Source: Nemertoderma westbladi
Taxonomy: Eukaryota; Animalia; Xenacoelomorpha
Assembly (NCBI GenBank): GCA_032718475.1
Contig: JAUCBJ010006506.1
Coordinates: forward strand, 1-64,000
DNA length: 64,000 nucleotides
Reading direction: 5' to 3'
Part shown: positions 850 to 64,000 of the stretch, one piece after another
Layout: each line of letters begins with the position of its first letter
Numbering within the stretch: the first letter of the stretch is position 1
Made by a program: the position numbers and the translations under genes
Notes under the pieces: generated by a model
What the model saw: the letters and a program-made list of their open reading frames with translations, nothing else
The model's database searches: none
Told to the model about the DNA's origin: nothing

Positions 850-855
850 ACTTAC
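850..855 (-). promoter_or_regulatory. 5' splice donor GTAAGT
   Basis: The plus strand reads acttac at 850-855, i.e. TG|GTAAGT on the minus strand, a perfect U2-type donor. It sits exactly where the transporter-like frame would otherwise hit TAA. Confidence 0.8.
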
Positions 856-1011
856 CAAATTCCAGCCTGACAGAAAAATCCCAAAAATACCATTAAATAA
901 TAATAGCCCAATACAGCGCCGCCTTCATCTATGTTCTTTAAACGTAGAATACTGCCAGCCAATAGGGAGGCAATGCCAATAGGTAGAAGCCAAACAATAG
1001 TTCGCATTAAC
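856..1011 (-). CDS. Internal coding exon (156 nt, phase 2/2) of a putative SLC1/EAAT-family dicarboxylate/amino acid:cation symporter, TM5-TM6 region
   Basis: Bounded by TATTTAATTTTTAG| (AG at 1013-1012) and |GTAAGT (855-850); length is divisible by 3. The peptide (R/K)LMRTIVWLLPIGIASLLAGSILRLKNIDEGGAVLGYYYLMVFLGFFCQAGI(W/C) aligns without gaps to the recalled SLC1 pattern W-x-x-P-[IV]-G-I-x-x-L-I-A-G-K-I...L-[GA]-x-Y-x-x-T-V-I-x-G-L-x-I-H. It lies inside track ORF 852..1055. Confidence 0.8.
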
Positions 1012-1048
1012 CTAAAAATTAAATAGGTACCAATGGATAGAGAGAGGT
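1012..1048 (-). promoter_or_regulatory. 3' splice acceptor with pyrimidine-rich tract (also the intronic part of the first satellite unit)
   Basis: The minus strand reads ACCTCTCTCTATCCATTGGTACCTATTTAATTTTTAG|GTTAATGCG, a T-rich tract ending in TAG immediately before the SLC1-like frame. Confidence 0.72.
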
Positions 1049-34980: not shown

Positions 34981-37900
34981 AAAAAATAAATAGGTACCAA
35001 TGGATAGAGAGATCAAAAAATAAATAGGTACCAATGGATAGAGAGAGGTCAAACAATAGTTCGTATTAACATAAAAAATAAATAGGTACCAATGGATAGA
35101 GAGATCAAAAAATAAATAGGTACCAATGGATAGAGAGATCAAAAAATAAATAGGTACCAATGGATAGAGAGGTCAAACAATAGTTCGTATTAACATAAAA
35201 AATAAATAGGTACCAATGGATAGAGAGAGGTCAAACAATAGTTCGTATTAACATAAAAAATAAATAGGTACCAATGGATAGAGAGAGGTCAAACAATAGT
35301 TCGTATTAACATAAAAAATAAATAGGTACCAATGGATAGAGAGATCAAAAAATAAATAGGTACCAATGGATAGAGAGAGATCAAACAATAGTTCGTATTA
35401 ACATAAAAAATAAATAGGTACCAATGGATAGAGAGAGGTCAAACAATAGTTCGTATTAACATAAAAAATAAATAGGTACCAATGGATAGAGAGATCAAAA
35501 AATAAATAGGTACCAATGGATAGAGAGAGGTCAAACAATAGTTCGTATTAACATAAAAAATAAATAGGTACCAATGGATAGAGAGAGGTCAAACAATAGT
35601 TCGCATTAACATAAAAAATAAATAGGTACCAATGGATAGAGAGAGGTCAAACAATAGTTCGTATTAACATAAAAAATAAATAGGTACCAATGGATAGAGA
35701 GAGGTCAAACAATAGTTCGTATTAACATAAAAAATAAATAGGTACCAATGGATAGAGAGAGGTCAAACAATAGTTCGTATTAACATAAAAAATAAATAGG
35801 TACCAATGGATAGAGAGATCAAAAAATAAATAGGTACCAATGGATAGAGAGAGGTCAAACAATAGTTCGTATTAACATAAAAAATAAATAGGTACCAATG
35901 GATAGAGAGAGGTCAAACAATAGTTCGCATTAACATAAAAAATAAATAGGTACCAATGGATAGAGAGAGGTCAAACAATAGTTCGCATTAACATAAAAAA
36001 TAAATAGGTACCAATGGATAGAGAGAGGTCAAACAATAGTTCGTATTAACATAAAAAATAAATAGGTACCAATGGATAGAGAGAGGTCAAACAATAGTTC
36101 GCATTAACATAAAAAATAAATAGGTACCAATGGATAGAGAGAGGTCAAACAATAGTTCGTATTAACATAAAAAATAAATAGGTACCAATGGATAGAGAGA
36201 GGTCAAACAATAGTTCGTATTAACATAAAAAATAAATAGGTACCAATGGATAGAGAGAGGTCAAACAATAGTTCGTATTAACATAAAAAATAAATAGGTA
36301 CCAATGGATAGAGAGATCAAAAAATAAATAGGTACCAATGGATAGAGAGAGGTCAAACAATAGTTCGTATTAACATAAAAAATAAATAGGTACCAATGGA
36401 TAGAGAGAGGTCAAACAATAGTTCGCATTAACATAAAAAATAAATAGGTACCAATGGATATAGAGAGGTCAAACAATAGTTCGTATTAACATAAAAAATA
36501 AATAGGTACCAATGGATAGAGAGAGGTCAAACAATAGTTCGCATTAACATAAAAAATAAATAGGTACCAATGGATAGAGAGATCAAACAATAGTTCGCAT
36601 TAACATAAAAAATAAATAGGTACCAATGGATAGAGAGAGGTCAAACAATAGTTCGCATTAACATAAAAAATAAATAGGTACCAATGGATAGAGAGATCAA
36701 ACAATAGTTCGCATTAACATAAAAAATAAATAGGTACCAATGGATAGAGAGAGGTCAAACAATAGTTCGTATTAACCTAAAAAATAAATAGGTACCAATG
36801 GATAGAGAGAGGTCAAACAATAGTTCGCATTAACATAAAAAATAAATAGGTACCAATGGATAGAGAGAGATCAAACAATAGTTCGTATTAACATAAAAAA
36901 TAAATAGGTACCAATGGATAGAGAGATCAAACAATAGTTCGCATTAACATAAAAAATAAATAGGTACCAATGGATAGAGAGAGGTCAAACAATAGTTCGT
37001 ATTAACATAAAAAATAAATAGGTACCAATGGATAGAGAGAGGTCAAACAATAGTTCGCATTAACATAAAAAATAAATAGGTACCAATGGATAGAGAGAGG
37101 TCAAACAATAGTTCGCATTAACCTAAAAAATAAATAGGTACCAATGGATAGAGAGAGGTCAAACAATAGTTCGCATTAACATAAAAAATAAATAGGTACC
37201 AATGGATAGAGAGAGGTCAAACAATAGTTCGCATTAACCTAAAAAATAAATAGGTACCAATGGATAGAGAGATCAAAAAATAAATAGGTACCAATGGATA
37301 GAGAGATCAAACAATAGTTCGTATTAACATAAAAAATAAATAGGTACCAATGGATAGAGAGAGGTCAAACAATAGTTCGTATTAACATAAAAAATAAATA
37401 GGTACCAATGGATAGAGAGAGGTCAAACAATAGTTCGTATTAACATAAAAAATAAATAGGTACCAATGGATAGAGAGAGGTCAAACAATAGTTCGTATTA
37501 ACATAAAAAATAAATAGGTACCAATGGATAGAGAGAGGTCAAACAATAGTTCGCATTAACATAAAAAATAAATAGGTACCAATGGATAGAGAGATCAAAC
37601 AATAGTTCGCATTAACATAAAAAATAAATAGGTACCAATGGATAGAGAGAGGTCAAACAATAGTTCGTATTAACATAAAAAATAAATAGGTACCAATGGA
37701 TAGAGAGAGGTCAAACAATAGTTCGTATTAACATAAAAAATAAATAGGTACCAATGGATAGAGAGAGGTCAAACAATAGTTCGCATTAACCTAAAAAATA
37801 AATAGGTACCAATGGATAGAGAGAGGTCAAACAATAGTTCGCATTAACATAAAAAATAAATAGGTACCAATGGATAGAGAGAGGTCAAACAATAGTTCGC

Positions 37901-40900
37901 ATTAACCTAAAAAATAAATAGGTACCAATGGATAGAGAGAGGTCAAACAATAGTTCGTATTAACATAAAAAATAAATAGGTACCAATGGATAGAGAGAGG
38001 TCAAACAATAGTTCGTATTAACATAAAAAATAAATAGGTACCAATGGATAGAGAGAGGTCAAACAATAGTTCGCATTAACCTAAAAAATAAATAGGTACC
38101 AATGGATAGAGAGAGGTCAAACAATAGTTCGCATTAACATAAAAAATAAATAGGTACCAATGGATAGAGAGAGGTCAAACAATAGTTCGCATTAACCTAA
38201 AAAATAAATAGGTACCAATGGATAGAGAGAGGTCAAACAATAGTTCGCATTAACATAAAAAATAAATAGGTACCAATGGATAGAGAGAGGTCAAACAATA
38301 GTTCGCATTAACATAAAAAATAAATAGGTACCAATGGATAGAGAGATCAAACAATAGTTCGCATTAACATAAAAAATAAATAGGTACCAATGGATAGAGA
38401 GAGGTCAAACAATAGTTCGTATTAACATAAAAAATAAATAGGTACCAATGGATAGAGAGAGATCAAACAATAGTTCGTATTAACATAAAAAATAAATAGG
38501 TACCAATGGATAGAGAGATCAAACAATAGTTCGCATTAACATAAAAAATAAATAGGTACCAATGGATAGAGAGAGATCAAACAATAGTTCGTATTAACAT
38601 AAAAAATAAATAGGTACCAATGGATAGAGAGAGGTCAAACAATAGTTCGTATTAACATAAAAAATAAATAGGTACCAATGGATAGAGAGGTCAAACAATA
38701 GTTCGCATTAACATAAAAAATAAATAGGTACCAATGGATAGAGAGAGGTCAAACAATAGTTCGCATTAACATAAAAAATAAATAGGTACCAATGGATAGA
38801 GAGAGATCAAACAATAGTTCGTATTAACATAAAAAATAAATAGGTACCAATGGATAGAGAGAGGTCAAACAATAGTTCGCATTAACATAAAAAATAAATA
38901 GGTACCAATGGATAGAGAGAGATCAAACAATAGTTCGTATTAACATAAAAAATAAATAGGTACCAATGGATAGAGAGATCAAACAATAGTTCGCATTAAC
39001 ATAAAAAATAAATAGGTACCAATGGATAGAGAGAGATCAAACAATAGTTCGTATTAACATAAAAAATAAATAGGTACCAATGGATAGAGAGAGGTCAAAC
39101 AATAGTTCGTATTAACATAAAAAATAAATAGGTACCAATGGATAGAGAGATCAAAAAATAAATAGGTACCAATGGATAGAGAGATCAAACAATAGTTCGC
39201 ATTAACATAAAAAATAAATAGGTACCAATGGATAGAGAGAGATCAAACAATAGTTCGTATTAACATAAAAAATAAATAGGTACCAATGGATAGAGAGATC
39301 AAAAAATAAATAGGTACCAATGGATAGAGAGAGATCAAACAATAGTTCGTATTAACATAAAAAATAAATAGGTACCAATGGATAGAGAGAGATCAAACAA
39401 TAGTTCGTATTAACATAAAAAATAAATAGGTACCAATGGATAGAGAGAGGTCAAACAATAGTTCGTATTAACATAAAAAATAAATAGGTACCAATGGATA
39501 GAGAGATCAAAAAATAAATAGGTACCAATGGATAGAGAGATCAAAAAATAAATAGGTACCAATGGATAGAGAGAGGTCAAACAATAGTTCGTATTAACAT
39601 AAAAAATAAATAGGTACCAATGGATAGAGAGATCAAAAAATAAATAGGTACCAATGGATAGAGAGATCAAAAAATAAATAGGTACCAATGGATAGAGAGG
39701 TCAAACAATAGTTCGTATTAACATAAAAAATAAATAGGTACCAATGGATAGAGAGAGGTCAAACAATAGTTCGTATTAACATAAAAAATAAACAGGTACC
39801 AATGGATAGAGAGAGGTCAAACAATAGTTCGTATTAACATAAAAAATAAATAGGTACCAATGGATAGAGAGATCAAAAAATAAATAGGTACCAATGGATA
39901 GAGAGAGATCAAACAATAGTTCGTATTAACATAAAAAATAAATAGGTACCAATGGATAGAGAGAGGTCAAACAATAGTTCGTATTAACATAAAAAATAAA
40001 TAGGTACCAATGGATAGAGAGATCAAAAAATAAATAGGTACCAATGGATAGAGAGAGGTCAAACAATAGTTCGTATTAACATAAAAAATAAATAGGTACC
40101 AATGGATAGAGAGAGGTCAAACAATAGTTCGCATTAACATAAAAAATAAATAGGTACCAATGGATAGAGAGAGGTCAAACAATAGTTCGTATTAACATAA
40201 AAAATAAATAGGTACCAATGGATAGAGAGAGGTCAAACAATAGTTCGTATTAACATAAAAAATAAATAGGTACCAATGGATAGAGAGAGGTCAAACAATA
40301 GTTCGTATTAACATAAAAAATAAATAGGTACCAATGGATAGAGAGATCAAAAAATAAATAGGTACCAATGGATAGAGAGAGGTCAAACAATAGTTCGTAT
40401 TAACATAAAAAATAAATAGGTACCAATGGATAGAGAGAGGTCAAACAATAGTTCGCATTAACATAAAAAATAAATAGGTACCAATGGATAGAGAGAGGTC
40501 AAACAATAGTTCGCATTAACATAAAAAATAAATAGGTACCAATGGATAGAGAGAGGTCAAACAATAGTTCGTATTAACATAAAAAATAAATAGGTACCAA
40601 TGGATAGAGAGAGGTCAAACAATAGTTCGCATTAACATAAAAAATAAATAGGTACCAATGGATAGAGAGAGGTCAAACAATAGTTCGTATTAACATAAAA
40701 AATAAATAGGTACCAATGGATAGAGAGAGGTCAAACAATAGTTCGTATTAACATAAAAAATAAATAGGTACCAATGGATAGAGAGAGGTCAAACAATAGT
40801 TCGTATTAACATAAAAAATAAATAGGTACCAATGGATAGAGAGATCAAAAAATAAATAGGTACCAATGGATAGAGAGAGGTCAAACAATAGTTCGTATTA

Positions 40901-43000
40901 ACATAAAAAATAAATAGGTACCAATGGATAGAGAGAGGTCAAACAATAGTTCGCATTAACATAAAAAATAAATAGGTACCAATGGATATAGAGAGGTCAA
41001 ACAATAGTTCGTATTAACATAAAAAATAAATAGGTACCAATGGATAGAGAGAGGTCAAACAATAGTTCGCATTAACATAAAAAATAAATAGGTACCAATG
41101 GATAGAGAGATCAAACAATAGTTCGCATTAACATAAAAAATAAATAGGTACCAATGGATAGAGAGAGGTCAAACAATAGTTCGCATTAACATAAAAAATA
41201 AATAGGTACCAATGGATAGAGAGATCAAACAATAGTTCGCATTAACATAAAAAATAAATAGGTACCAATGGATAGAGAGAGGTCAAACAATAGTTCGTAT
41301 TAACCTAAAAAATAAATAGGTACCAATGGATAGAGAGAGGTCAAACAATAGTTCGCATTAACATAAAAAATAAATAGGTACCAATGGATAGAGAGAGATC
41401 AAACAATAGTTCGTATTAACATAAAAAATAAATAGGTACCAATGGATAGAGAGATCAAACAATAGTTCGCATTAACATAAAAAATAAATAGGTACCAATG
41501 GATAGAGAGATCAAAAAATAAATAGGTACCAATGGATAGAGAGATCAAAAAATAAATAGGTACCAATGGATAGAGAGATCAAACAATAGTTCGCATTAAC
41601 ATAAAAAATAAATAGGTACCAATGGATAGAGAGAGGTCAAACAATAGTTCGTATTAACATAAAAAATAAATAGGTACCAATGGATAGAGAGAGGTCAAAC
41701 AATAGTTCGCATTAACATAAAAAATAAATAGGTACCAATGGATAGAGAGAGGTCAAACAATAGTTCGCATTAACCTAAAAAATAAATAGGTACCAATGGA
41801 TAGAGAGAGGTCAAACAATAGTTCGCATTAACATAAAAAATAAATAGGTACCAATGGATAGAGAGAGGTCAAACAATAGTTCGCATTAACCTAAAAAATA
41901 AATAGGTACCAATGGATAGAGAGATCAAAAAATAAATAGGTACCAATGGATAGAGAGATCAAACAATAGTTCGTATTAACATAAAAAATAAATAGGTACC
42001 AATGGATAGAGAGAGGTCAAACAATAGTTCGTATTAACATAAAAAATAAATAGGTACCAATGGATAGAGAGAGGTCAAACAATAGTTCGTATTAACATAA
42101 AAAATAAATAGGTACCAATGGATAGAGAGAGGTCAAACAATAGTTCGTATTAACATAAAAAATAAATAGGTACCAATGGATAGAGAGAGGTCAAACAATA
42201 GTTCGCATTAACATAAAAAATAAATAGGTACCAATGGATAGAGAGATCAAACAATAGTTCGCATTAACATAAAAAATAAATAGGTACCAATGGATAGAGA
42301 GAGGTCAAACAATAGTTCGTATTAACATAAAAAATAAATAGGTACCAATGGATAGAGAGAGGTCAAACAATAGTTCGTATTAACATAAAAAATAAATAGG
42401 TACCAATGGATAGAGAGAGGTCAAACAATAGTTCGCATTAACCTAAAAAATAAATAGGTACCAATGGATAGAGAGAGGTCAAACAATAGTTCGCATTAAC
42501 ATAAAAAATAAATAGGTACCAATGGATAGAGAGAGGTCAAACAATAGTTCGCATTAACCTAAAAAATAAATAGGTACCAATGGATAGAGAGAGGTCAAAC
42601 AATAGTTCGTATTAACATAAAAAATAAATAGGTACCAATGGATAGAGAGAGGTCAAACAATAGTTCGTATTAACATAAAAAATAAATAGGTACCAATGGA
42701 TAGAGAGAGGTCAAACAATAGTTCGCATTAACCTAAAAAATAAATAGGTACCAATGGATAGAGAGAGGTCAAACAATAGTTCGCATTAACATAAAAAATA
42801 AATAGGTACCAATGGATAGAGAGAGGTCAAACAATAGTTCGCATTAACCTAAAAAATAAATAGGTACCAATGGATAGAGAGAGGTCAAACAATAGTTCGC
42901 ATTAACATAAAAAATAAATAGGTACCAATGGATAGAGAGAGGTCAAACAATAGTTCGCATTAACATAAAAAATAAATAGGTACCAATGGATAGAGAGATC
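33800..43000. repeat. Approximately 4.5-kb tandem duplication within the satellite (boundaries approximate)
   Basis: The private variant GGATATAGAG occurs at 36461 and 40989, and track ORFs start at 35160 and 39688, both at offset 4,528. The order of unit types matches apart from a few unit-level indels. Confidence 0.8.
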
Positions 43001-46000
43001 AAACAATAGTTCGTATTAACATAAAAAATAAATAGGTACCAATGGATAGAGAGAGGTCAAACAATAGTTCGTATTAACATAAAAAATAAATAGGTACCAA
43101 TGGATAGAGAGAGGTCAAACAATAGTTCGTATTAACATAAAAAATAAATAGGTACCAATGGATAGAGAGAGGTCAAACAATAGTTCGTATTAACATAAAA
43201 AATAAATAGGTACCAATGGATAGAGAGAGGTCAAACAATAGTTCGCATTAACCTAAAAAATAAATAGGTACCAATGGATAGAGAGAGGTCAAACAATAGT
43301 TCGCATTAACATAAAAAATAAATAGGTACCAATGGATAGAGAGAGGTCAAACAATAGTTCGCATTAACCTAAAAAATAAATAGGTACCAATGGATAGAGA
43401 GAGGTCAAACAATAGTTCGCATTAACATAAAAAATAAATAGGTACCAATGGATAGAGAGAGGTCAAACAATAGTTCGCATTAACCTAAAAAATAAATAGG
43501 TACCAATGGATAGAGAGAGGTCAAACAATAGTTCGTATTAACATAAAAAATAAATAGGTACCAATGGATAGAGAGAGATCAAACAATAGTTCGTATTAAC
43601 ATAAAAAATAAATAGGTAACAATTGAGGGAGAGGTCAAACAATAGTTCGCATTAACATAAAAAATAAATAGGTACCAATGGATAGAGAGAGGTCAAACAA
43701 TAGTTCGTATTAACCTAAAAAATAAATAGGTACCAATGGATAGAGAGATCAAACAATAGTTCGTATTAACCTAAAAAATAAATAGGTACCAATGGATAGA
43801 GAGAGGTCAAACAATAGTTCGTATTAACATAAAAAATAAATAGGTACCAATGGATAGAGAGAGGTCAAACAATAGTTCGTATTAACATAAAAAATAAATA
43901 GGTACCAATGGATAGAGAGGTCAAACAATAGTTCGTATTAACATAAAAAATAAATAGGTACCAATGGATAGAGAGAGGTCAAACAATAGTTCGCATTAAC
44001 CTAAAAAATAAATAGGTACCAATGGATAGAGAGAGGTCAAACAATAGTTCGTATTAACCTAAAAAATAAATAGGTAACAATTGAGGGAGAGGTCAAACAA
44101 TAGTTCGTATTAACATAAAAAATAAATAGGTACCAATGGATAGAGAGAGGTCAAACAATAGTTCGTATTAACATAAAAAATAAATAGGTACCAATGGATA
44201 GAGAGAGGTCAAACAATAGTTCGTATTAACCTAAAAAATAAATAGGTACCAATGGATAGAGAGAGGTCAAACAATAGTTCGTATTAACATAAAAAATAAA
44301 TAGGTACCAATGGATAGAGAGAGATCAAACAATAGTTCGTATTAACATAAAAAATAAATAGGTAACAATTGAGGGAGAGGTCAAACAATAGTTCGCATTA
44401 ACATAAAAAATAAATAGGTACCAATGGATAGAGAGAGGTCAAACAATAGTTCGTATTAACATAAAAAATAAATAGGTACCAATGGATAGAGAGAGGTCAA
44501 ACAATAGTTCGTATTAACATAAAAAATAAATAGGTACCAATGGATAGAGAGAGGTCAAACAATAGTTCGTATTAACATAAAAAATAAATAGGTACCAATG
44601 GATAGAGAGAGGTCAAACAATAGTTCGTATTAACATAAAAAATAAATAGGTACCAATGGATAGAGAGAGGTCAAACAATAGTTCGTATTAACCTAAAAAA
44701 TAAATAGGTACCAATGGATAGAGAGAGGTCAAACAATAGTTCGTATTAACATAAAAAATAAATAGGTACCAATGGATAGAGAGAGATCAAACAATAGTTC
44801 GTATTAACATAAAAAATAAATAGGTAACAATTGAGGGAGAGGTCAAACAATAGTTCGCATTAACATAAAAAATAAATAGGTACCAATGGATAGAGAGAGG
44901 TCAAACAATAGTTCGTATTAACATAAAAAATAAATAGGTACCAATGGATAGAGAGAGGTCAAACAATAGTTCGTATTAACATAAAAAATAAATAGGTACC
45001 AATGGATAGAGAGAGGTCAAACAATAGTTCGCATTAACATAAAAAATAAATAGGTACCAATGGATAGAGAGAGGTCAAACAATAGTTCGCATTAACATAA
45101 AAAATAAATAGGTACCAATGGATAGAGAGAGGTCAAACAATAGTTCGCATTAACATAAAAAATAAATAGGTACCAATGGATAGAGAGATCAAACAATAGT
45201 TCGCATTAACATAAAAAATAAATAGGTACCAATGGATAGAAAGAGGTCAAACAATAGTTCGCATTAACATAAAAAATAAATAGGTACCAATGGATAGAGA
45301 GAGGTCAAACAATAGTTCGCATTAACATAAAAAATAAATAGGTACCAATGGATAGAGAGATCAAACAATAGTTCGCATTAACATAAAAAATAAATAGGTA
45401 CCAATGGATAGAGAGAGGTCAAACAATAGTTCGTATTAACATAAAAAATAAATAGGTACCAATGGATAGAGAGAGGTCAAACAATAGTTCGTATTAACAT
45501 AAAAAATAAATAGGTACCAATGGATAGAGAGAGGTCAAACAATAGTTCGCATTAACCTAAAAAATAAATAGGTACCAATGGATAGAGAGAGGTCAAACAA
45601 TAGTTCGTATTAACCTAAAAAATAAATAGGTACCAATGGATAGAGAGAGGTCAAACAATAGTTCGTATTAACATAAAAAATAAATAGGTACCAATGGATA
45701 GAGAGAGATCAAACAATAGTTCGTATTAACATAAAAAATAAATAGGTACCAATGGATAGAGAGATCAAACAATAGTTCGCATTAACATAAAAAATAAATA
45801 GGTACCAATGGATAGAGAGAGGTCAAACAATAGTTCGTATTAACATAAAAAATAAATAGGTACCAATGGATAGAGAGAGGTCAAACAATAGTTCGTATTA
45901 ACATAAAAAATAAATAGGTACCAATGGATAGAGAGAGGTCAAACAATAGTTCGCATTAACCTAAAAAATAAATAGGTACCAATGGATAGAGAGAGGTCAA

Positions 46001-49000
46001 ACAATAGTTCGCATTAACATAAAAAATAAATAGGTACCAATGGATAGAGAGAGGTCAAACAATAGTTCGCATTAACCTAAAAAATAAATAGGTACCAATG
46101 GATAGAGAGAGGTCAAACAATAGTTCGTATTAACATAAAAAATAAATAGGTACCAATGGATAGAGAGAGGTCAAACAATAGTTCGTATTAACATAAAAAA
46201 TAAATAGGTACCAATGGATAGAGAGAGGTCAAACAATAGTTCGCATTAACCTAAAAAATAAATAGGTACCAATGGATAGAGAGAGGTCAAACAATAGTTC
46301 GCATTAACATAAAAAATAAATAGGTACCAATGGATAGAGAGAGGTCAAACAATAGTTCGCATTAACCTAAAAAATAAATAGGTACCAATGGATAGAGAGA
46401 GGTCAAACAATAGTTCGCATTAACATAAAAAATAAATAGGTACCAATGGATAGAGAGAGGTCAAACAATAGTTCGCATTAACATAAAAAATAAATAGGTA
46501 CCAATGGATAGAGAGATCAAACAATAGTTCGCATTAACATAAAAAATAAATAGGTACCAATGGATAGAGAGAGGTCAAACAATAGTTCGTATTAACATAA
46601 AAAATAAATAGGTACCAATGGATAGAGAGAGGTCAAACAATAGTTCGTATTAACATAAAAAATAAATAGGTACCAATGGATAGAGAGAGGTCAAACAATA
46701 GTTCGCATTAACCTAAAAAATAAATAGGTACCAATGGATAGAGAGAGGTCAAACAATAGTTCGCATTAACATAAAAAATAAATAGGTACCAATGGATAGA
46801 GAGAGGTCAAACAATAGTTCGCATTAACCTAAAAAATAAATAGGTACCAATGGATAGAGAGAGGTCAAACAATAGTTCGTATTAACATAAAAAATAAATA
46901 GGTACCAATGGATAGAGAGAGGTCAAACAATAGTTCGCATTAACCTAAAAAATAAATAGGTACCAATGGATAGAGAGAGGTCAAACAATAGTTCGCATTA
47001 ACATAAAAAATAAATAGGTACCAATGGATAGAGAGAGGTCAAACAATAGTTCGTATTAACATAAAAAATAAATAGGTACCAATGGATAGAGAGAGGTCAA
47101 ACAATAGTTCGCATTAACCTAAAAAATAAATAGGTACCAATGGATAGAGAGAGGTCAAACAATAGTTCGCATTAACATAAAAAATAAATAGGTACCAATG
47201 GATAGAGAGAGGTCAAACAATAGTTCGCATTAACCTAAAAAATAAATAGGTACCAATGGATAGAGAGAGGTCAAACAATAGTTCGTATTAACCTAAAAAA
47301 TAAATAGGTACCAATGGATAGAGAGAGGTCAAACAATAGTTCGTATTAACATAAAAAATAAATAGGTACCAATGGATAGAGAGAGGTCAAACAATAGTTC
47401 GTATTAACCTAAAAAATAAATAGGTACCAATGGATAGAGAGAGGTCAAACAATAGTTCGTATTAACATAAAAAATAAATAGGTACCAATGGATAGAGAGA
47501 GGTCAAACAATAGTTCGCATTAACCTAAAAAATAAATAGGTACCAATGGATAGAGAGAGGTCAAACAATAGTTCGCATTAACATAAAAAATAAATAGGTA
47601 CCAATGGATAGAGAGAGGTCAAACAATAGTTCGCATTAACCTAAAAAATAAATAGGTACCAATGGATAGAGAGAGGTCAAACAATAGTTCGCATTAACAT
47701 AAAAAATAAATAGGTACCAATGGATAGAGAGAGGTCAAACAATAGTTCGCATTAACATAAAAAATAAATAGGTACCAATGGATAGAGAGATCAAACAATA
47801 GTTCGCATTAACATAAAAAATAAATAGGTACCAATGGATAGAGAGAGGTCAAACAATAGTTCGTATTAACATAAAAAATAAATAGGTACCAATGGATAGA
47901 GAGAGGTCAAACAATAGTTCGTATTAACATAAAAAATAAATAGGTACCAATGGATAGAGAGAGGTCAAACAATAGTTCGCATTAACCTAAAAAATAAATA
48001 GGTACCAATGGATAGAGAGAGGTCAAACAATAGTTCGCATTAACATAAAAAATAAATAGGTACCAATGGATAGAGAGAGGTCAAACAATAGTTCGCATTA
48101 ACCTAAAAAATAAATAGGTACCAATGGATAGAGAGAGGTCAAACAATAGTTCGTATTAACATAAAAAATAAATAGGTACCAATGGATAGAGAGAGGTCAA
48201 ACAATAGTTCGCATTAACCTAAAAAATAAATAGGTACCAATGGATAGAGAGAGGTCAAACAATAGTTCGCATTAACATAAAAAATAAATAGGTACCAATG
48301 GATAGAGAGAGGTCAAACAATAGTTCGTATTAACATAAAAAATAAATAGGTACCAATGGATAGAGAGAGGTCAAACAATAGTTCGCATTAACCTAAAAAA
48401 TAAATAGGTACCAATGGATAGAGAGAGGTCAAACAATAGTTCGCATTAACATAAAAAATAAATAGGTACCAATGGATAGAGAGAGGTCAAACAATAGTTC
48501 GCATTAACCTAAAAAATAAATAGGTACCAATGGATAGAGAGAGGTCAAACAATAGTTCGTATTAACATAAAAAATAAATAGGTACCAATGGATAGAGAGA
48601 GATCAAACAATAGTTCGTATTAACATAAAAAATAAATAGGTAACAATTGAGGGAGAGGTCAAACAATAGTTCGCATTAACATAAAAAATAAATAGGTACC
48701 AATGGATAGAGAGAGGTCAAACAATAGTTCGCATTAACATAAAAAATAAATAGGTACCAATGGATAGAGAGAGGTCAAACAATAGTTCGCATTAACATAA
48801 AAAATAAATAGGTACCAATGGATAGAGAGAGGTCAAACAATAGTTCGTATTAACCTAAAAAATAAATAGGTACCAATGGATAGAGAGATCAAACAATAGT
48901 TCGTATTAACCTAAAAAATAAATAGGTACCAATGGATAGAGAGAGGTCAAACAATAGTTCGTATTAACATAAAAAATAAATAGGTACCAATGGATAGAGA

Positions 49001-52000
49001 GAGGTCAAACAATAGTTCGTATTAACATAAAAAATAAATAGGTACCAATGGATAGAGAGGTCAAACAATAGTTCGTATTAACATAAAAAATAAATAGGTA
49101 CCAATGGATAGAGAGAGGTCAAACAATAGTTCGCATTAACCTAAAAAATAAATAGGTACCAATGGATAGAGAGAGGTCAAACAATAGTTCGTATTAACCT
49201 AAAAAATAAATAGGTAACAATTGAGGGAGAGGTCAAACAATAGTTCGTATTAACATAAAAAATAAATAGGTACCAATGGATAGAGAGAGGTCAAACAATA
49301 GTTCGTATTAACATAAAAAATAAATAGGTACCAATGGATGGAGAGAGGTCAAACAATAGTTCGTATTAACATAAAAAATAAATAGTTACCAATGGATAGA
49401 GAGAGGTCAAACAATAGTTCGTATTAACATAAAAAATAAATAGGTACCAATGGATAGAGAGAGGTCAAACAATAGTTCGTATTAACATAAAAAATAAATA
49501 GGTACCAATGGATAGAGAGAGGTCAAACAATAGTTCGTATTAACATAAAAAATAAATAGTTACCAATGGATAGAGAGAGGTCAAACAATAGTTCGTATTA
49601 ACATAAAAAATAAATAGGTACCAATGGATAGAGAGAGGTCAAACAATAGTTCGTATTAACATAAAAAATAAATAGGTACCAATGGATAGAGAGATCAAAC
49701 AATAGTTCGTATTAACATAAAAAATAAATAGGTACCAATGGATAGAGAGAGGTCAAACAATAGTTCGTATTAACATAAAAAATAAATAGGTACCAATGGA
49801 TAGAGAGAGGTCAAACAATAGTTCGTATTAACCTAAAAAATAAATAGGTACCAATGGATAGAGAGAGGTCAAACAATAGTTCGTATTAACATAAAAAATA
49901 AATAGGTACCAATGGATAGAGAGAGATCAAACAATAGTTCGTATTAACATAAAAAATAAATAGGTAACAATTGAGGGAGAGGTCAAACAATAGTTCGCAT
50001 TAACATAAAAAATAAATAGGTACCAATGGATAGAGAGAGGTCAAACAATAGTTCGTATTAACCTAAAAAATAAATAGGTACCAATGGATAGAGAGAGGTC
50101 AAACAATAGTTCGTATTAACCTAAAAAATAAATAGGTAACAATTGAGGGAGAGGTCAAACAATAGTTCGTATTAACATAAAAAATAAATAGGTACCAATG
50201 GATAGAGAGAGGTCAAACAATAGTTCGTATTAACATAAAAAATAAATAGGTACCAATGGATAGAGAGAGGTCAAACAATAGTTCGTATTAACCTAAAAAA
50301 TAAATAGGTACCAATGGATAGAGAGAGGTCAAACAATAGTTCGTATTAACATAAAAAATAAATAGGTACCAATGGATAGAGAGAGGTCAAACAATAGTTC
50401 GTATTAACCTAAAAAATAAATAGGTACCAATGGATAGAGAGAGGTCAAACAATAGTTCGTATTAACCTAAAAAATAAATAGGTACCAATGGATAGAGAGA
50501 GGTCAAACAATAGTTCGTATTAACCTAAAAAATAAATAGGTACCAATGGATAGAGAGAGGTCAAACAATAGTTCGTATTAACATAAAAAATAAATAGGTA
50601 CCAATGGATAGAGAGAGGTCAAACAATAGTTCGTATTAACATAAAAAATAAATAGGTACCAATGGATAGAGAGAGGTCAAACAATAGTTCGTATTAACCT
50701 AAAAAATAAATAGGTACCAATGGATAGAGAGATCAAACAATAGTTCGTATTAACATAAAAAATAAATAGGTACCAATGGATAGAGAGAGGTCAAACAATA
50801 GTTCGCATTAACATAAAAAATAAATAGGTACCAATGGATAGAGAGATCAAACAATAGTTCGTATTAACCTAAAAAATAAATAGGTACCAATGGATAGAGA
50901 GAGGTCAAACAATAGTTCGTATTAACATAAAAAATAAATAGGTACCAATGGATAGAGAGAGATCAAACAATAGTTCGTATTAACATAAAAAATAAATAGG
51001 TACCAATGGATAGAGAGATCAAACAATAAATAGGTACCAATGGATAGAGAGATCAAACAATAGTTCGTATTAACATAAAAAATAAATAGGTAACAATGGA
51101 TAGAGAGAGATCAAACAATAGTTCGTATTAACATAAAAAATAAATAGGTACCAATGGATAGAGAGATCAAACAATAGTTCGTATTAACCTAAAAAATAAA
51201 TAGGTACCAATGGATAGAGAGATCAAACAATAGTTCGTATTAACATAAAAAATAAATAGGTACCAATGGATAGAGAGAGGTCAAACAATAGTTCGCATTA
51301 ACATAAAAAATAAATAGGTACCAATGGATAGAGAGATCAAACAATAGTTCGTATTAACATAAAAAATAAATAGGTACCAATGGATAGAGAGAGGTCAAAC
51401 AATAGTTCGTATTAACATAAAAAATAAATAGGTACCAATGGATAGAGAGAGGTCAAACAATAGTTCGTATTAACATAAAAAATAAATAGGTACCAATGGA
51501 TAGAGAGATCAAACAATAGTTCGTATTAACATAAAAAATAAATAGGTACCAATGGATAGAGAGAGGTCAAACAATAGTTCGTATTAACCTAAAAAATAAA
51601 TAGGTACCAATGGATAGAGAGAGGTCAAACAATAGTTCGTATTAACATAAAAAATAAATAGGTACCAATGGATAGAGAGAGGTCAAACAATAGTTCGTAT
51701 TAACATAAAAAATAAATAGGTACCAATGGATAGAGAGAGGTCAAACAATAGTTCGTATTAACATAAAAAATAAATAGGTACCAATGGATAGAGAGAGGTC
51801 AAACAATAGTTCGTAATAACATAAAAAATAAATAGGTACCAATGGATAGAGAGATCAAACAATAAATAGGTACCAATGGATAGAGAGAGGTCAAACAATA
51901 GTTCGCATTAACCTAAAAATTAAATAGGTACCAATGGATAGAGAGAGGTCAAACAATAGTTCGTATTAACATAAAAAATAAATAGGTACCAATGGATAGA

Positions 52001-55000
52001 GAGATCAAACAATAGTTCGTATTAACATAAAAAATAAATAGGTACCAATGGATAGAGAGATCAAACAATAGTTCGTATTAACATAAAAAATAAATAGGTA
52101 CCAATGGATAGAGAGAGGTCAAACAATAGTTCGCATTAACATAAAAAATAAATAGGTACCAATGGATAGAGAAATCAAACAATAGTTCGTATTAACATAA
52201 AAAATAAATAGGTACCAATGGATAGAGAGAGGTCAAACAATAGTTCGTATTAACATAAAAAATAAATAGGTACCAATGGATAGAGAGAGGTCAAACAATA
52301 GTTCGCATTAACCTAAAAATTAAATAGGTACCAATGGATAGAGAGAGGTCAAACAATAGTTCGTATTAACATAAAAAATAAATAGATACCAATGGATAGA
52401 GAGAGGTCAAACAATAGTTCGCATTAACATAAAAAATAAATAGGTACCAATGGATAGAGAGAGGTCAAACAATAGTTCGCATTAACATAAAAAATAAATA
52501 GGTACCAATGGATAGAGAGAGGTCAAACAATAGTTCGTATTAACATAAAAAATAAATAGGTACCAATGGATAGAGAGAGGTCAAACAATAGTTCGTATTA
52601 ACATAAAAAATAAATAGGTACCAATGGATAGAGAGAGGTCAAACAATAGTTCGTATTAACATAAAAAATAAATAGGTACCAATGGATAGAGAGATCAAAC
52701 AATAAATAGGTACCAATGGATAGAGAGAGGTCAAACAATAGTTCGTATTAACATAAAAAATAAATAGGTACCAATGGATAGAGAGATCAAAAAATAAATA
52801 GGTACCAATGGATAGAGAGAGATCAAACAATAGTTCGTATTAACATAAAAAATAAATAGGTACCAATGGATAGAGAGAGGTCAAACAATAGTTCGTATTA
52901 ACATAAAAAATAAATAGGTACCAATGGATAGAGAGATCAAACAATAAATAGGTACCAATGGATAGAGAGAGGTCAAACAATAGTTCGTATTAACATAAAA
53001 AATAAATAGGTACCAATGGATAGAGAGATCAAAAAATAAATAGGTACCAATGGATAGAGAGAGGTCAAACAATAGTTCGTATTAACATAAAAAATAAATA
53101 GGTACCAATGGATAGAGAGAGGTCAAACAATAGTTCGTATTAACATAAAAAATAAATAGGTACCAATGGATAGAGAGATCAAAAATTAAATAGGTACCAA
53201 TGGATAGAGAGAGGTCAAACAATAGTTCGTATTAACATAAAAAATAAATAGGTACCAATGGATAGAGAGAGGTCAAACAATAGTTCGCATTAACCTAAAA
53301 ATTAAATAGGTACCAATGGATAGAGAGATCAAACAATAGTTCGTATTAACATAAAAAATAAATAGGTACCAATGGATAGAGAGAGGTCAAACAATAGTTC
53401 GCATTAACATAAAAAATAAATAGGTACCAATGGATAGAGAGAGGTCAAACAATAGTTCGCATTAACCTAAAAATTAAATAGGTACCAATGGATAGAGAGA
53501 TCAAACAATAGTTCGTATTAACATAAAAAATAAATAGGTACCAATGGATAGAGAGAGGTCAAACAATAGTTCGTATTAACATAAAAAATAAATAGGTACC
53601 AATGGATAGAGAGAGGTCAAACAATAGTTCGCATTAACCTAAAAAATAAATAGGTACCAATGGATAGAGAGAGGTCAAAAAATAGTTCGTATTAACATAA
53701 AAAATAAATAGGTACCAATGAATAGAGAGAGGTCAAACAATAGTTCGCATTAACATAAAAAATAAATAGGTACCAATGGATAGAGAGAGGTCAAACAATA
53801 GTTCGTATTAACATAAAAAATAAATAGGTACCAATGGATAGAGAGAGGTCAAACAATAGTTCGCATTAACCTAAAAAATAAATAGGTACCAATGGATAGA
53901 GAGAGGTCAAACAATAGTTCGCATTAACCTAAAAAATAAATAGGTACCAATGGATAGAGAGAGGTCAAACAATAGTTCGCATTAACCTAAAAATTAAATA
54001 GGTACCAATGGATAGAGAGATCAAACAATAGTTCGTATTAACATAAAAAATAAATAGGTACCAATGGATAGAGAGATCAAACAATAGTTCGTATTAACAT
54101 AAAAAATAAATAGGTACCAATGGATAGAGAGATCAAACAATAAATAGGTACCAATGGATAGAGAGATCAAACAATAGTTCGTATTAACATAAAAAATAAA
54201 TAGGTACCAATGGATAGAGAGAGGTCAAACAATAGTTCGCATTAACCTAAAAAATAAATAGGTACCAATGGATAGAGAGAGGTCAAACAATAGTTCGCAT
54301 TAACCTAAAAAATAAATAGGTACCAATGGATAGAGAGAGGTCAAACAATAGTTCGCATTAACCTAAAAATTAAATAGGTACCAATGGATAGAGAGATCAA
54401 ACAATAGTTCGTATTAACATAAAAAATAAATAGGTACCAATGGATAGAGAGATCAAACAATAGTTCGTATTAACATAAAAAATAAATAGGTACCAATGGA
54501 TACAGGAGGTAAAACAATAGTTCGTATTAACATAAAAAATAAATAGGTACCAATGGATAGAGAGGTCAAACAATAGTTCGCATTAACCTAAAAAATAAAT
54601 AGGTACCAATGGATAGAGAGGTCAAACAATAGTTCGCATTAACCTAAAAAATAAATAGGTACCAATGGATAGAGAGGTCAAACAATAGTTCGTATTAACA
54701 TAAAAAATAAATAGGTACCAATGGATAGAGAGAGGTCAAACAATAGTTCGTATTAACATAAAAAATAAATAGGTACCAATGGATGGAGAGAGGTCAAACA
54801 ATAGTTCGTATTAACCTAAAAAATAAATAGGTACCAATGGATAGAGAGAGGTCAAACAATAGTTCGCATTAACATAAAAAATAAATAGGTACCAATGGAT
54901 AGAGAGAGGTCAAACAATAGTTCGCATTAACATAAAAAATAAATAGGTACCAATGGATAGAGAGAGGTCAAACAATAGTTCGTATTAACATAAAAAATAA

Positions 55001-55973: not shown

Positions 55974-58900
55974 ATTAACATAAAAAATAAATAGGTACCA
56001 ATGGATAGAGAGATCAAACAATAAATAGGTACCAATGGATAGAGAGGTCAAACAATAGTTCGCATTAACCTAAAAAATAAATAGGTACCAATGGATAGAG
56101 AGATCAAACAATAAATAGGTACCAATGGATAGAGAGAGGTCAAACAATAGTTCGCATTAACATAAAAAATAAATAGGTACCAATGGATAGAGAGATCAAA
56201 AAATAAATAGGTACCAATGGATAGAGAGGTCAAACAATAGTTCGCATTAACATAAAAAATAAATAGGTACCAATGGATAGAGAGAGGTCAAACAATAGTT
56301 CGTATTAACATAAAAAATAAATAGGTACCAATTGATAGAGAGAGGTCAAACAATAGTTCGTATTAACATAAAAAATAAATAGGTACCAATGGATAGAGAG
56401 AGGTCAAACAATAGTTCGTATTAACATAAAAAATAAATAGGTACCAATGGATAGAGAGAGGTCAAACAATAGTTCGCATTAACATAAAAAATAAATAGGT
56501 ACCAATGGATAGAGAGATCAAAAAATAAATAGGTACCAATGGATAGAGAGGTCAAACAATAGTTCGCATTAACATAAAAAATAAATAGGTACCAATGGAT
56601 AGAGAGAGGTCAAACAATAGTTCGCATTAACATAAAAAATAAATAGGTACCAATGGATAGAGAGATCAAAAAATAAATAGGTACCAATGGATAGAGAGAG
56701 GTCAAACAATAGTTCGCATTAACATAAAAAATAAATAGGTACCAATTGATAGAGAGAGGTCAAACAATAGTTCGTATTAACATAAAAAATAAATAGGTAC
56801 CAATTGATAGAGAGAGGTCAAACAATAGTTCGTATTAACATAAAAAATAAATAGGTACCAATGGATAGAGAGAGGTCAAACAATAGTTCGCATTAACATA
56901 AAAAATAAATAGGTACCAATGGATTGAGAGATCAAAAAATAAATAGGTACCAATGGATAGAGAGGTCAAACAATAGTTCGCATTAACATAAAAAATAAAT
57001 AGGTACCAATGGATAGAGAGAGGTCAAACAATAGTTCGCATTAACATAAAAAATAAATAGGTACCAATGGATAGAGAGATCAAAAAATAAATAGGTACCA
57101 ATGGATAGAGAGAGGTCAAACAATAGTTCGCATTAACATAAAAAATAAATAGGTACCAATTGATAGAGAGAGGTCAAACAATAGTTCGCATTAACCTAAA
57201 AAATAAATAGGTACCAATGGATAGAGAGAGGTCAAACAATAGTTCGCATTAACATAAAAAATAAATAGGTACCAATGGATAGAGAGATCAAAAAATAAAT
57301 AGGTACCAATGGATAGAGAGATCAAAAAATAAATAGGTACCAATGGATAGAGAGAGGTCAAACAATAGTTCGAATTAACATAAAAAATAAATAGGTACCA
57401 ATGGATAGAGAGAGGTCAAACAATAGTTCGCATTAACATAAAAAATAAATAGGTACCAATGGATAGAGAGAGGTCAAACAATAGTTCGCATTAACATAAA
57501 AAATAAATAGGTACCAATGGAAAGAGAGAGATCAAACAATAGTTCGAATTAACATAAAAAATAAATAGGTACCAATGGATAGAGAGAGGTCAAACAATAG
57601 TTCGCATTAACATAAAAAATAAATAGGTACCAATGGATAGAGAGAGATCAAACAATAGTTCGAATTAACATAAAAAATAAATAGGTACCAATGGATAGAG
57701 AGAGGTCAAACAATAGTTCGCATTAACATAAAAAATAAATAGGTACCAATGGATAGAGAGAGGTCAAACAATAGTTCGTATTAACATAAAAAATAAATAG
57801 GTACCAATGGATAGAGAGATCAAAAAATAAATAGGTACCAATGGATAGAGAGGTCAAACAATAGTTCGAATTAACATAAAAAATAAATAGGTACCAATGG
57901 ATAGAGAGATCAAACAATAAATAGGTACCAATGGATAGAGAGGTCAAACAATAGTTCGCATTAACCTAAAAAATAAATAGGTACCAATGGATAGAGAGAT
58001 CAAACAATAAATAGGTACCAATGGATAGAGAGAGGTCAAACAATAGTTCGCATTAACATAAAAAATAAATAGGTACCAATGGATAGAGAGATCAAAAAAT
58101 AAATAGGTACCAATGGATAGAGAGGTCAAACAATAGTTCGCATTAACATAAAAAATAAATAGGTACCAATGGATAGAGAGAGGTCAAACAATAGTTCGTA
58201 TTAACATAAAAAATAAATAGGTACCAATTGATAGAGAGAGGTCAAACAATAGTTCGTATTAACATAAAAAATAAATAGGTACCAATGGATAGAGAGAGGT
58301 CAAACAATAGTTCGTATTAACATAAAAAATAAATAGGTACCAATGGATAGAGAGAGGTCAAACAATAGTTCGCATTAACATAAAAAATAAATAGGTACCA
58401 ATGGATAGAGAGATCAAAAAATAAATAGGTACCAATGGATAGAGAGGTCAAACAATAGTTCGCATTAACATAAAAAATAAATAGGTACCAATGGATAGAG
58501 AGAGGTCAAACAATAGTTCGCATTAACATAAAAAATAAATAGGTACCAATGGATAGAGAGATCAAAAAATAAATAGGTACCAATGGATAGAGAGAGGTCA
58601 AACAATAGTTCGCATTAACATAAAAAATAAATAGGTACCAATTGATAGAGAGAGGTCAAACAATAGTTCGTATTAACATAAAAAATAAATAGGTACCAAT
58701 TGATAGAGAGAGGTCAAACAATAGTTCGTATTAACATAAAAAATAAATAGGTACCAATGGATAGAGAGAGGTCAAACAATAGTTCGCATTAACATAAAAA
58801 ATAAATAGGTACCAATGGATTGAGAGATCAAAAAATAAATAGGTACCAATGGATAGAGAGGTCAAACAATAGTTCGCATTAACATAAAAAATAAATAGGT

Positions 58901-59805
58901 ACCAATGGATAGAGAGAGGTCAAACAATAGTTCGCATTAACATAAAAAATAAATAGGTACCAATGGATAGAGAGATCAAAAAATAAATAGGTACCAATGG
59001 ATAGAGAGAGGTCAAACAATAGTTCGCATTAACATAAAAAATAAATAGGTACCAATTGATAGAGAGAGGTCAAACAATAGTTCGCATTAACCTAAAAAAT
59101 AAATAGGTACCAATGGATAGAGAGAGGTCAAACAATAGTTCGCATTAACATAAAAAATAAATAGGTACCAATGGATAGAGAGATCAAAAAATAAATAGGT
59201 ACCAATGGATAGAGAGATCAAAAAATAAATAGGTACCAATGGATAGAGAGAGGTCAAACAATAGTTCGAATTAACATAAAAAATAAATAGGTACCAATGG
59301 ATAGAGAGAGGTCAAACAATAGTTCGCATTAACATAAAAAATAAATAGGTACCAATGGATAGAGAGAGGTCAAACAATAGTTCGCATTAACATAAAAAAT
59401 AAATAGGTACCAATGGAAAGAGAGAGATCAAACAATAGTTCGAATTAACATAAAAAATAAATAGGTACCAATGGATAGAGAGAGGTCAAACAATAGTTCG
59501 CATTAACATAAAAAATAAATAGGTACCAATGGATAGAGAGAGATCAAACAATAGTTCGAATTAACATAAAAAATAAATAGGTACCAATGGATAGAGAGAG
59601 GTCAAACAATAGTTCGCATTAACATAAAAAATAAATAGGTACCAATGGATAGAGAGAGGTCAAACAATAGTTCGTATTAACATAAAAAATAAATAGGTAC
59701 CAATGGATAGAGAGATCAAAAAATAAATAGGTACCAATGGATAGAGAGGTCAAACAATAGTTCGAATTAACATAAAAAATAAATAGGTACCAATGGATAG
59801 AGAGA
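55974..59805. repeat. Higher-order tandem duplication within the satellite, period 1,896 bp
   Basis: Rare variants recur at exactly +1,896: GGATTGAG (56925/58821), GGAAAGAG (57522/59418), and the identical track ORFs 56048..56233 and 57944..58129. Confidence 0.9.
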
Positions 59806-62800
59806 GGTCAAACAATAGTTCGCATTAACATAAAAAATAAATAGGTACCAATGGATAGAGAGAGGTCAAACAATAGTTCGTATTAACATAAAAAATAAAT
59901 AGGTACCAATGGATAGAGAGAGGTCAAACAATAGTTCGTATTAACATAAAAAATAAATAGGTACCAATGGATAGAGAGGTCAAACAATAGTTCGAATTAA
60001 CATAAAAAATAAATAGGTACCAATGGATAGAGAGAGGTCAAACAATAGTTCGTATTAACATAAAAAATAAATAGGTACCAATGGATAGAGAGAGGTCAAA
60101 CAATAGTTCGTATTAACATAAAAAATAAATAGGTACCAATGGATAGAGAGATCAAACAATAGTTCGCATTAACATAAAAAATAAATAGGTACCAATGGAT
60201 AGAGAGATCAAACAATAGTTCGTATTAACATAAAAAATAAATAGGTACCAATGGATAGAGAGAGGTCAAACAATAAATAGGTACCAATGGATAGAGAGGT
60301 CAAACAATAGTTCGTATTAACATAAAAAATAAATAGGTACCAATGGATAGAGAGATCAAACAATAGTTCGCATTAACATAAAAAATAAATAGGTACCAAT
60401 GGATAGAGAGAGGTCAAACAATAGTTCGAATTAACATAAAAAATAAATAGGTACCAATGGATAGAGAGATCAAAAAATAAATAGGTACCAATGGATAGAG
60501 AGATCAAAAAATAAATAGGTACCAATGGATAGAGAGAGGTCAAACAATAGTTCGCATTAACATAAAAAATAAATAGGTACCAATGGATAGAGAGAGGTCA
60601 AACAATAGTTCGTATTAACATAAAAAATAAATAGGTACCAATGGATAGAGAGAGGTCAAACAATAGTTCGTATTAACATAAAAAATAAATAGGTACCAAT
60701 GGATAGAGAGAGGTCAAACAATAGTTCGTATTAACATAAAAAATAAATAGGTACCAATGGATAGAGAGATCAAACAATAGTTCGCATTAACATAAAAAAT
60801 AAATAGGTACCAATGGATAGAGAGATCAAACAATAGTTCGTATTAACATAAAAAATAAATAGGTACCAATGGATAGAGAGAGGTCAAACAATAAATAGGT
60901 ACCAATGGATAGAGAGAGGTCAAACAATAGTTCGTATTAACCTAAAAAATAAATAGGTACCAATGGATAGAGAGATCAAACAATAGTTCGTATTAACATA
61001 AAAAATAAATAGGTACCAATGGATAGAGAGAGGTCAAACAATAAATAGGTACCAATGGATAGAGAGATCAAACAATAGTTCGTATTAACATAAAAAATAA
61101 ATAGGTACCAATGGATAGAGAGAGGTCAAACAATAAATAGGTACCAATGGATAGAGAGAGGTCAAACAATAGTTCGTATTAACATAAAAAATAAATAGGT
61201 ACCAATGGATAGAGAGATCAAACAATAGTTCGCATTAACATAAAAAATAAATAGGTACCAATGGATAGAGAGATCAAACAATAGTTCGTATTAACATAAA
61301 AAATAAATAGGTACCAATGGATAGAGAGAGGTCAAACAATAAATAGGTACCAATAGATAGAGAGGTCAAACAATAGTTCGAATTAACATAAAAAATAAAT
61401 AGGTACCAATGGATAGAGAGATCAAAAAATAAATAGGTACCAATGGATAGAGAGATCAAAAAATAAATAGGTACCAATGGATAGAGAGATCAAACAATAG
61501 TTCGTATTAACATAAAAAATAAATAGGTACCAATGGATAGAGAGAGGTCAAACAATAGTTCGTATTAACATAAAAAATAAATAGGTACCAATGGATAGAG
61601 AGAGGTCAAACAATAGTTCGTATTAACATAAAAAATAAATAGGTACCAATGGATAGAGAGAGGTCAAACAATAGTTCGTATTAACATAAAAAATAAATAG
61701 GTACCAATGGATAGAGAGAGGTCAAACAATAGTTCGTATTAACATAAAAAATAAATAGGTACCAATGGATAGAGAGAGGTCAAACAATAGTTCGTATTAA
61801 CATAAAAAATAAATAGGTACCAATGGATAGAGAGAGGTCAAACAATAGTTCGTATTAACATAAAAAATAAATAGGTACCAATGGATAGAGAGAGGTCAAA
61901 CAATAGTTCGTATTAACATAAAAAATAAATAGGTACCAATGGATAGAGAGAGGTCAAACAATAGTTCGAATTAACATAAAAAATAAATAGGTACCAATGG
62001 ATAGAGAGAGGTCAAACAATAGTTCGTATTAACATAAAAAATAAATAGGTACCAATGGATAGAGAGAGGTCAAACAATAGTTCGCATTAACATAAAAAAT
62101 AAATAGGTACCAATGGATAGAGAGAGGTCAAACAATAGTTCGTATTAACATAAAAAATAAATAGGTACCAATGGATAGAGAGAGGTCAAACAATAGTTCG
62201 TATTAACATAAAAAATAAATAGGTACCAATGGATAGAGAGAGGTCAAACAATAGTTCGAATTAACATAAAAAATAAATAGGTACCAATGGATAGAGAGAG
62301 GTCAAACAATAGTTCGAATTAACATAAAAAATAAATAGGTACCAATGGATAGAGAGATCAAAAAATAAATAGGTACCAATGGATAGAGAGATCAAAAAAT
62401 AAATAGGTACCAATGGATAGAGAGGTCAAACAATAGTTCGTATTAACATAAAAAATAAATAGGTACCAATGGATAGAGAGAGGTCAAACAATAGTTCGAA
62501 TTAACATAAAAAATAAATAGGTACCAATGGATAGAGAGATCAAAAAATAAATAGGTACCAATGGATAGAGAGATCAAAAAATAAATAGGTACCAATGGAT
62601 AGAGAGAGGTCAAACAATAGTTCGAATTAACATAAAAAATAAATAGGTACCAATGGATAGAGAGAGGTCAAACAATAGTTCGTATTAACATAAAAAATAA
62701 ATAGGTACCAATGGATAGAGAGAGGTCAAACAATAGTTCGTATTAACATAAAAAATAAATAGGTACCAATGGATAGAGAGATCAAACAATAGTTCGTATT

Positions 62801-64000
62801 AACATAAAAAATAAATAGGTACCAATGGATAGAGAGAGGTCAAACAATAGTTCGTATTAACATAAAAAATAAATAGGTACCAATGGATAGAGAGATCAAA
62901 CAATAGTTCGTATTAACATAAAAAATAAATAGGTACCAATGGATAGAGAGAGGTCAAACAATAGTTCGTATTAACATAAAAAATAAATAGGTACCAATGG
63001 ATAGAGAGATCAAAAAATAAATAGGTACCAATGGATAGAGAGATCAAACAATAGTTCGCATTAACATAAAAAATAAATAGGTACCAATGGATAGAGAGAG
63101 GTCAAACAATAGTTCGTATTAACATAAAAAAAAAATAGGTACCAATGGATAGAGAGATCAAACAATAGTTCGTATTAACATAAAAAATAAATAGGTACCA
63201 ATGGATAGAGAGAGGTCAAACAATAGTTCGTATTAACATAAAAAATAAATAGGTACCAATGGATAGAGAGGTCAAACAATAGTTCGCATTAACATAAAAA
63301 ATAAATAGGTACCAATGGATAGAGAGGTCAAACAATAGTTCGCATTAACATAAAAAATAAATAGGTACCAATGGATAGAGAGATCAAACAATAGTTCGTA
63401 TTAACATAAAAAATAAATAGGTACCAATGGATAGAGAGAGGTCAAACAATAGTTCGTATTAACATAAAAAATAAATAGGTACCAATGGATAGAGAGAGGT
63501 CAAACAATAGTTCGTATTAACATAAAAAATAAATAGGTACCAATGGATAGAGAGAGATCAAACAATAGTTCGCATTAACATAAAAAATAAATAGGTACCA
63601 ATGGATAGAGAGATCAAAAAATAAATAGGTACCAATGGATAGAGAGAGGTCAAACAATAGTTCGCATTAACATAAAAAATAAATAGGTACCAATGGATAG
63701 AGAGATCAAACAATAAATAGGTACCAATGGATAGAGAGAGGTCAAACAATAGTTCGCATTAACATAAAAAATAAATAGGTACCAATGGATAGAGAGATCA
63801 AAAAATAAATAGGTACCAATGGATAGAGAGATCAAAAAATAAATAGGTACCAATGGATAGAGAGGGGTCAAACAATAGTTCGTATTAACATAAAAAATAA
63901 ATAGGTACCAATGGATAGAGAGATCAAACAATAGTTCGAATTAACATAAAAAATAAATAGGTACCAATGGATAGAGAGGTCAAACAATAGTTCGCATTAA

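Follow-up and report, generated by a model that had tools for sequence, protein, structure and literature searches.

A splice-junction repeat of at least 63 kb beside an SLC1 exon of Nemertoderma westbladi

How far can a repeat built on a splice junction grow inside a gene, and how is the genuine splice site then told from its copies? The question is raised by a stretch of 64,000 nucleotides from the xenacoelomorph Nemertoderma westbladi (assembly GCA_032718475.1, contig JAUCBJ010006506.1, positions 1 to 64,000; hereafter the window), in which a tandem array runs into a coding exon. Related structures are known from amphioxus, in which so-called 'mirage' minisatellites have been described in the globin genes BflGb6 and BflGb9, in Adh3, in troponin C and in PGBD5 (PMC3087553, PMC3902484). 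In the excerpts of these reports used here, mirages are tandem duplications of the 3' end of an intron together with the 5' part of the exon, with 3 and 6 units in BflGb6 (PMC3087553). The Adh3 unit measures 10-72 bp, the AG/GT junction is kept in many but not all copies, splicing stays regular, and the repeats show length instability and concerted evolution (PMC3087553, PMC3902484). On the excerpted evidence, a 37-bp VNTR in intron 7 of human F7 has a first element that spans the exon-intron border, followed by identical pseudo-sites that are silent (PMC1557585). An earlier note on the Nemertoderma locus, made from the letters of the window, named no described array of this size derived from the host's own acceptor. 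Novelty of the kind is not supported beside the amphioxus mirages as excerpted (PMC3087553): the kind is already known, and it is the size that stands out.

Judging from its sequence, the exon beside the array is part of an SLC1 (SDF, PF00375) gene. The match of 856-1011 to Pfam SDF (PF00375) that the earlier note had expected is there, but it is weak (E=0.01) and lies below the curated cut-off. In a search of PDB sequences the exon matches positions 283-330 of human EAAT2 (E=0.0019), and the ten best of 14 matches are SLC1 proteins. An exhaustive search of 1.84 billion representatives returned a sole match, P0123 (48% identity), which is itself a clear SDF protein (E=8e-15); word-index protein searches and Atlas gave no match to the exon peptide. 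The alignment with P0123 begins at exon residue 1, and identical residues occur at four of the seven positions encoded by the head, that is, by the first 21 exon nucleotides, which recur in the array. Because these seven codons fit the SLC1 family, the head is best read as old coding sequence, and the array was therefore likely copied from the exon and not the reverse. The substrate-binding motifs of the transport domain lie in exons beyond the window. Vertebrate SLC1 genes presumably have an intron at the W codon in which the shared head breaks off; literature searches did not confirm this position, which was given no weight. With its length of 156 nt and phase 2 at both ends, the exon could be skipped with the frame preserved.

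Contigs of public sequencing runs were aligned on 500-1075, and four of the eight listed runs have the stretch (X1-X4). X1 and X3 are one sample, X2 is from a different sample and study from X1, and X4 is another sample. In X4, one contig of 3,113 nt matches the window over 853-1011 only, flanked by 1,896 letters of other sequence upstream and 1,058 downstream. The upstream joint departs from the window right behind 1011, exactly at the predicted AG; the downstream joint has three ambiguous letters, the next exon starting identically, and the GT rule places it at 856. Read by hand, both 30-letter loose ends carry on the SLC1 reading frame, matching the EAAT1 chain in register at K-L, I and W upstream and at I-Y and R downstream. 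None of the runs with the stretch is labelled as RNA; this one is labelled 'DNA?', has a depth of 0 in the intron and array bins, and has a LINE:exon depth ratio of ~8-37 as opposed to ~40,000 in X1, for a LINE family that is very abundant. Because of this depth pattern, with no intron or array depth and a low LINE:exon ratio, we take X4 to be RNA. In this contig the terminal acceptor and the GTAAGT donor are both used, joining the exon to neighbouring SLC1 exons. This RNA-like evidence is one contig from one run of another sample than the window, and because contigs drop rare variants, decoys may still be used at a low level. Both junctions proposed in the earlier note, at 1011 and 856, are thus borne out, as is its SLC1-like exon, for which the EAAT2 match, the SDF relative P0123 and the flanking exons in register all speak.

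Table 1 Features of the window (positions count from its first letter)
Feature	Position	Strand	Remarks
5'-truncated LINE	1..786	minus	reverse transcriptase (RT) frame open over 262 codons; RVT_1 E=5.5e-24; not part of the array
Donor GTAAGT	850..855	minus	X4 contig matches from 853, the three extra letters being also the start of the next exon
SLC1 (SDF family) coding exon	856..1011	minus	156 nt, open, phase 2 at both ends; TAG at 1012-1014, GTAAGT at 850-855
Terminal unit	991..1048	minus	37 nt ending in the used acceptor plus first 21 exon nt
Tandem array	991..64000	minus	1,141 units (58-, 56- and 34-nt types); in the intron upstream of the SLC1 exon; open-ended at the window edge
Used acceptor AG	1012..1013	minus	GT follows directly (AG/GT); joint of X4 contig
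Eight decoys	30385..54362	minus	equal to the true acceptor over -20..+21; four identical over all 58 nt
Heads of the identical decoys	30385, 30671, 51912, 52312, 53294, 53466, 53986, 54362	minus	sequence comparison
Exact adjacent doublet	55989..59780		1,896 bp, 37 units

From 991 onward the window has a period of 58 (TRF). The anchor motif occurs 1,141 times within 991-64000, and neither a non-repeat stretch nor an N was found in that range up to the window end; the array reaches the edge at 64000, and its size is therefore a lower bound of at least 1,141 units and at least 63 kb. Most units are 58 nt long: the 1,140 unit spacings comprise 768 of 58, 254 of 56, 107 of 34, five of 36 and three of 57 nt, with one each of 54, 60 and 63 nt. 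The units fall into 89 distinct types, and a 58-mer departs from the consensus by 0.87 letters on average. As the earlier note had seen, the first unit (991-1048) overlaps the exon: the terminal copy crosses the exon-intron border at 1011/1012, and its head is the exon start. The array would lie in one intron, at one locus. A coding role is ruled out, the longest open stretch of the array being 113 codons. In the 34- and 36-nt units the acceptor and the head are deleted between two near-identical A-rich words, and such units look like the product of microhomology-driven deletion. The part most distant from the exon, 56000-64000, is poor in AG-bearing copies (5 of 116) and rich in acceptor-less short units (37 of 153), a makeup that may reflect local block expansion.

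Most of the array no longer carries the splice site. Among the 1,029 head-bearing copies, 838 are preceded by TAT and 191, the true acceptor included, by TAG; another 112 short units have neither acceptor nor head. The AG is hence kept in 191 of 1,141 units (17%), which are the true site and 190 decoys, and lost in 83%, and the transcribed strand has no AG dinucleotide besides these 191. The earlier description of the array as copies of the intron's own 3' splice site is right about the origin of the 21-nt head from coding sequence, but it does not fit the 83% of units that are without the site today. In frame, the codon directly behind the head is TGA in 1,025 copies, TAA in one, TTA in two and TGG in the terminal copy only, so a stop stands directly behind 1,026 of the 1,029 heads. 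As the earlier note had stated, only the terminal copy continues into the exon and the GTAAGT. The transcribed strand of the array has no GTAAG and no AATAAA, as against 1,122 AATAAA on the opposite strand.

Selection against the decoys was not detected, loss of the AG in 81% of heads comparing with other derived changes that reach 99% at -8 and 56% at +6. New AGs are not significantly avoided (0 vs 2.5 expected, P=0.06), and the share of AG copies shows no trend with distance along the array (Spearman p=0.74). The AG copies are linked to the ATG state of the exon, which 133 of the 191 have as compared with 288 of the 838 TAT copies, and this fits descent from the terminal type.

Because eight decoys equal the true acceptor over 41 nt, local sequence cannot be the selector of the true site, and because only the true site has a strong donor 156 nt on, exon definition likely selects the terminal AG. 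The reading that we prefer, with a probability of roughly 0.72, is that the junction repeat was amplified in place, is tolerated and is near-neutral, the true acceptor likely being chosen by exon definition. A 58-nt piece over the acceptor and the first seven codons of the SLC1 exon would have been amplified more than 1,100 times in tandem, in place, through slippage and unequal exchange. The direction of copying would be from exon to array, given seven codons that fit the family. Tolerance would follow from the last copy alone having a complete exon and a strong donor behind it, and the distance of 156 nt to that donor would allow exon definition to pick the true acceptor. Nonsense-mediated decay is an established pathway, and rare RNA spliced at a decoy would carry a stop and probably be removed by it; the array itself would be near-neutral. 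Such an array is likely an unusually large case of the mirage type of repeat.

A different fate of the array is suggested by its AG/GT borders. Because the junction reads AG/GT (190 sites read TAG/GTTA, the true one included), each unit is formally a 58-nt GT...AG piece, and the units between AG-bearing copies could be pieces of 58 nt or multiples that are spliced out stepwise at dual-specific or recursive sites, which we consider unlikely. The 189 AG/GTTAAT sites are the best donor-like matches of the array besides 4 GTAACT, and in a crude match count they reach 6 of 9 positions of the donor consensus, the true donor reaching 7 of 9. GTT is a poor donor, however, and counts against an array that removes itself; moreover, 81% of the heads are without AG, only five of 116 copies beyond 56 kb have one, and no intermediate was seen. 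Precedents exist in the excerpted literature for both parts of the idea, with tandem AGGT sites used both ways in human UBC (PMC10809524) and intron gain through AGGT duplication (PMC4974935).

Under stepwise removal, the intron may have been born by tandem duplication of the first 60 nt of the exon, a piece that opens with GT and closes with the first AG in the exon. In the fullest version, a 60-nt coding GT...AG piece was duplicated, became a minimal intron and grew to more than 63 kb, since any run of units bounded by AG/GT could itself be spliced out, with ~190 ratchet points for removal and the far end abutting the upstream exon; we regard this as quite unlikely. The exon's first AG does close at nt 60, the 37-nt tail of the unit can be aligned over its whole length to exon nt 22-60, and the frame of P0123, at 48% identity, continues across both intron positions. 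The tail-exon alignment score was reached in 12-20 of 1,500 shuffles in a prefix test and in 73-287 of 5,000 in a global test (p ~0.01-0.06, post hoc). However, the likeness is weak, it was spotted first and tested later, 35 of 1,896 unrelated offsets score equally, and other offsets inside the exon tie or beat the score. The head is identical at 21 of 21 positions but the tail only ~55-65% alike, which requires two steps, and the GT start of the exon is not special here because the next exon also starts with GT. Scans of metagenomes for orthologous DNA gave 0 matches, and a pattern scan gave 594 hits, of which 0 were confirmed.

Amplification in place has left traces in the order of the units. 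Fourteen blocks, each of 12-37 units, come back unchanged 1.3-21 kb away, compared with 5-7 units in 20 shuffled orders, and from these nested duplicated kilobase blocks we infer growth by unequal exchange or slippage. The exact 1,896-bp doublet may have arisen by duplication very recently or be a repeat made locally by the assembly. To obtain the expected sequencing depth, the array of the window was turned into a 31-mer graph by simulation, in which the summed array:exon depth ratio at 1020-1039 is 6,800-20,800, a range that depends on the pruning of rare words. The observed ratios are 5,855 in X1, 17,119 in X2 and 271 in X3, the last being some 20-fold below X1 despite the common sample. 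Summed contig depth is a rough measure and no copy number, and by this rough measure the X1 and X2 samples differ ~threefold. The junction of the 34-nt unit stands at 163 times exon depth in X2, as compared with 66-68 in the window. The depths of two of the three DNA runs, X1 and X2, correspond to a total between tens of kb and ~150 kb, about what one such array would give, and thereby speak against a gross expansion in the assembly as well as against a megabase satellite. The size given in the earlier note, at least 63 kb and about 1,100 copies, agrees with the 1,141 units counted, and its order is backed by the same two runs.

These depths bear on the possibility that the living genome has a far shorter array, expanded in the assembly, or that the array sits on a dead allele, its haplotype having been disabled by the array and by a fresh LINE insertion. 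The low ratio of 271 in X3, the one exact adjacent 1,896-bp doublet and the fact that no array-spanning read was seen would fit such a case, as would the LINE, which is in the window's haplotype only and not in the X1-X3 contigs. We nevertheless hold it to be improbable: the 89 unit types stand in a nested, non-periodic order, the depth is of the order expected in both X1 and X2, whose samples and studies are separate, and the exon is intact and equals the X2 contig letter for letter over 787-974. The LINE lies in the downstream intron, in the gene's sense direction and 69 nt past the donor. To the left of 787 the X1, X2 and X3 DNA contigs extend for 549-648 letters that do not match it, and the insertion looks polymorphic and recent. 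Its relatives are 47-59% identical, and the named ones come from lancelet, ctenophore and fish.

The depth in X2 permits up to ~2.5 times the window's copies, and this would leave room for a unit that is a multi-locus satellite, spread genome-wide or inserted here, lending the exon a new acceptor and seven codons. Such an origin is highly improbable, given that the total depth in X1 and X2 is about that of one array, not 10-100 times more, and that the seven codons fit SLC1 in register, which those of an unrelated satellite would not.

With amplification of the gene's own junction as the preferred reading, the locus can be placed among known systems, as far as the excerpts of the respective papers describe them. 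As in mirages, the unit spans the exon-intron border of the host gene and not all copies keep the AG (191 of 1,141); unlike the BflGb6 mirage with its 3 and 6 units, the array has 1,141 units or more, spans 63 kb or more, contains kilobase block duplications and keeps the AG in only 17% of units. The F7 VNTR is on the donor side, has few copies, and its first site wins by 5'-3' scanning (PMC1557585), whereas here the acceptor side is involved and it is the last of 191 sites that is chosen, an outcome not predicted by scanning from upstream. Human UBC is likewise a tandem array with AG/GT unit borders (PMC10809524), but its units are coding and spliced stochastically, whereas here an in-frame stop follows and no use of internal sites was seen in the contigs. 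The gigantic introns of Drosophila Y fertility genes are also enlarged by tandem repeats; they measure hundreds of kb to Mb and are not described, in the excerpted text, as derived from the gene's own splice site (PMC6508621, PMC11207136). No described junction array of this size was found in the open-licence literature, which is weak evidence of absence. The locus shows how far a splice-junction repeat can grow, more than 100 times beyond the amphioxus globin cases as excerpted (PMC3087553). With 190 decoys that are all transcribed before the true site, eight of them matching it over 41 nt, it lends itself naturally to testing exon definition against first-AG scanning, and also co-transcriptional commitment within a long intron. 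If the AG/GT units were removed stepwise, the array would link the birth of introns by duplication with their growth to giant size; otherwise it is a known oddity taken to a striking but functionally quiet extreme.

The exon also varies among the runs. The X2 and X3 contigs cease matching at 974, the X3 contig then having 27 non-matching letters, and 975-979 are uncovered in both; this break near 975-990 may be a variant at the exon-array border or graph pruning beside the high-depth repeat. Two single-nucleotide differences from the window are 917 C>T in X1 and X3 and 918 G>A in X1 and X4, so that the RNA-like X4 contig has the 918 variant and not the window's letter.
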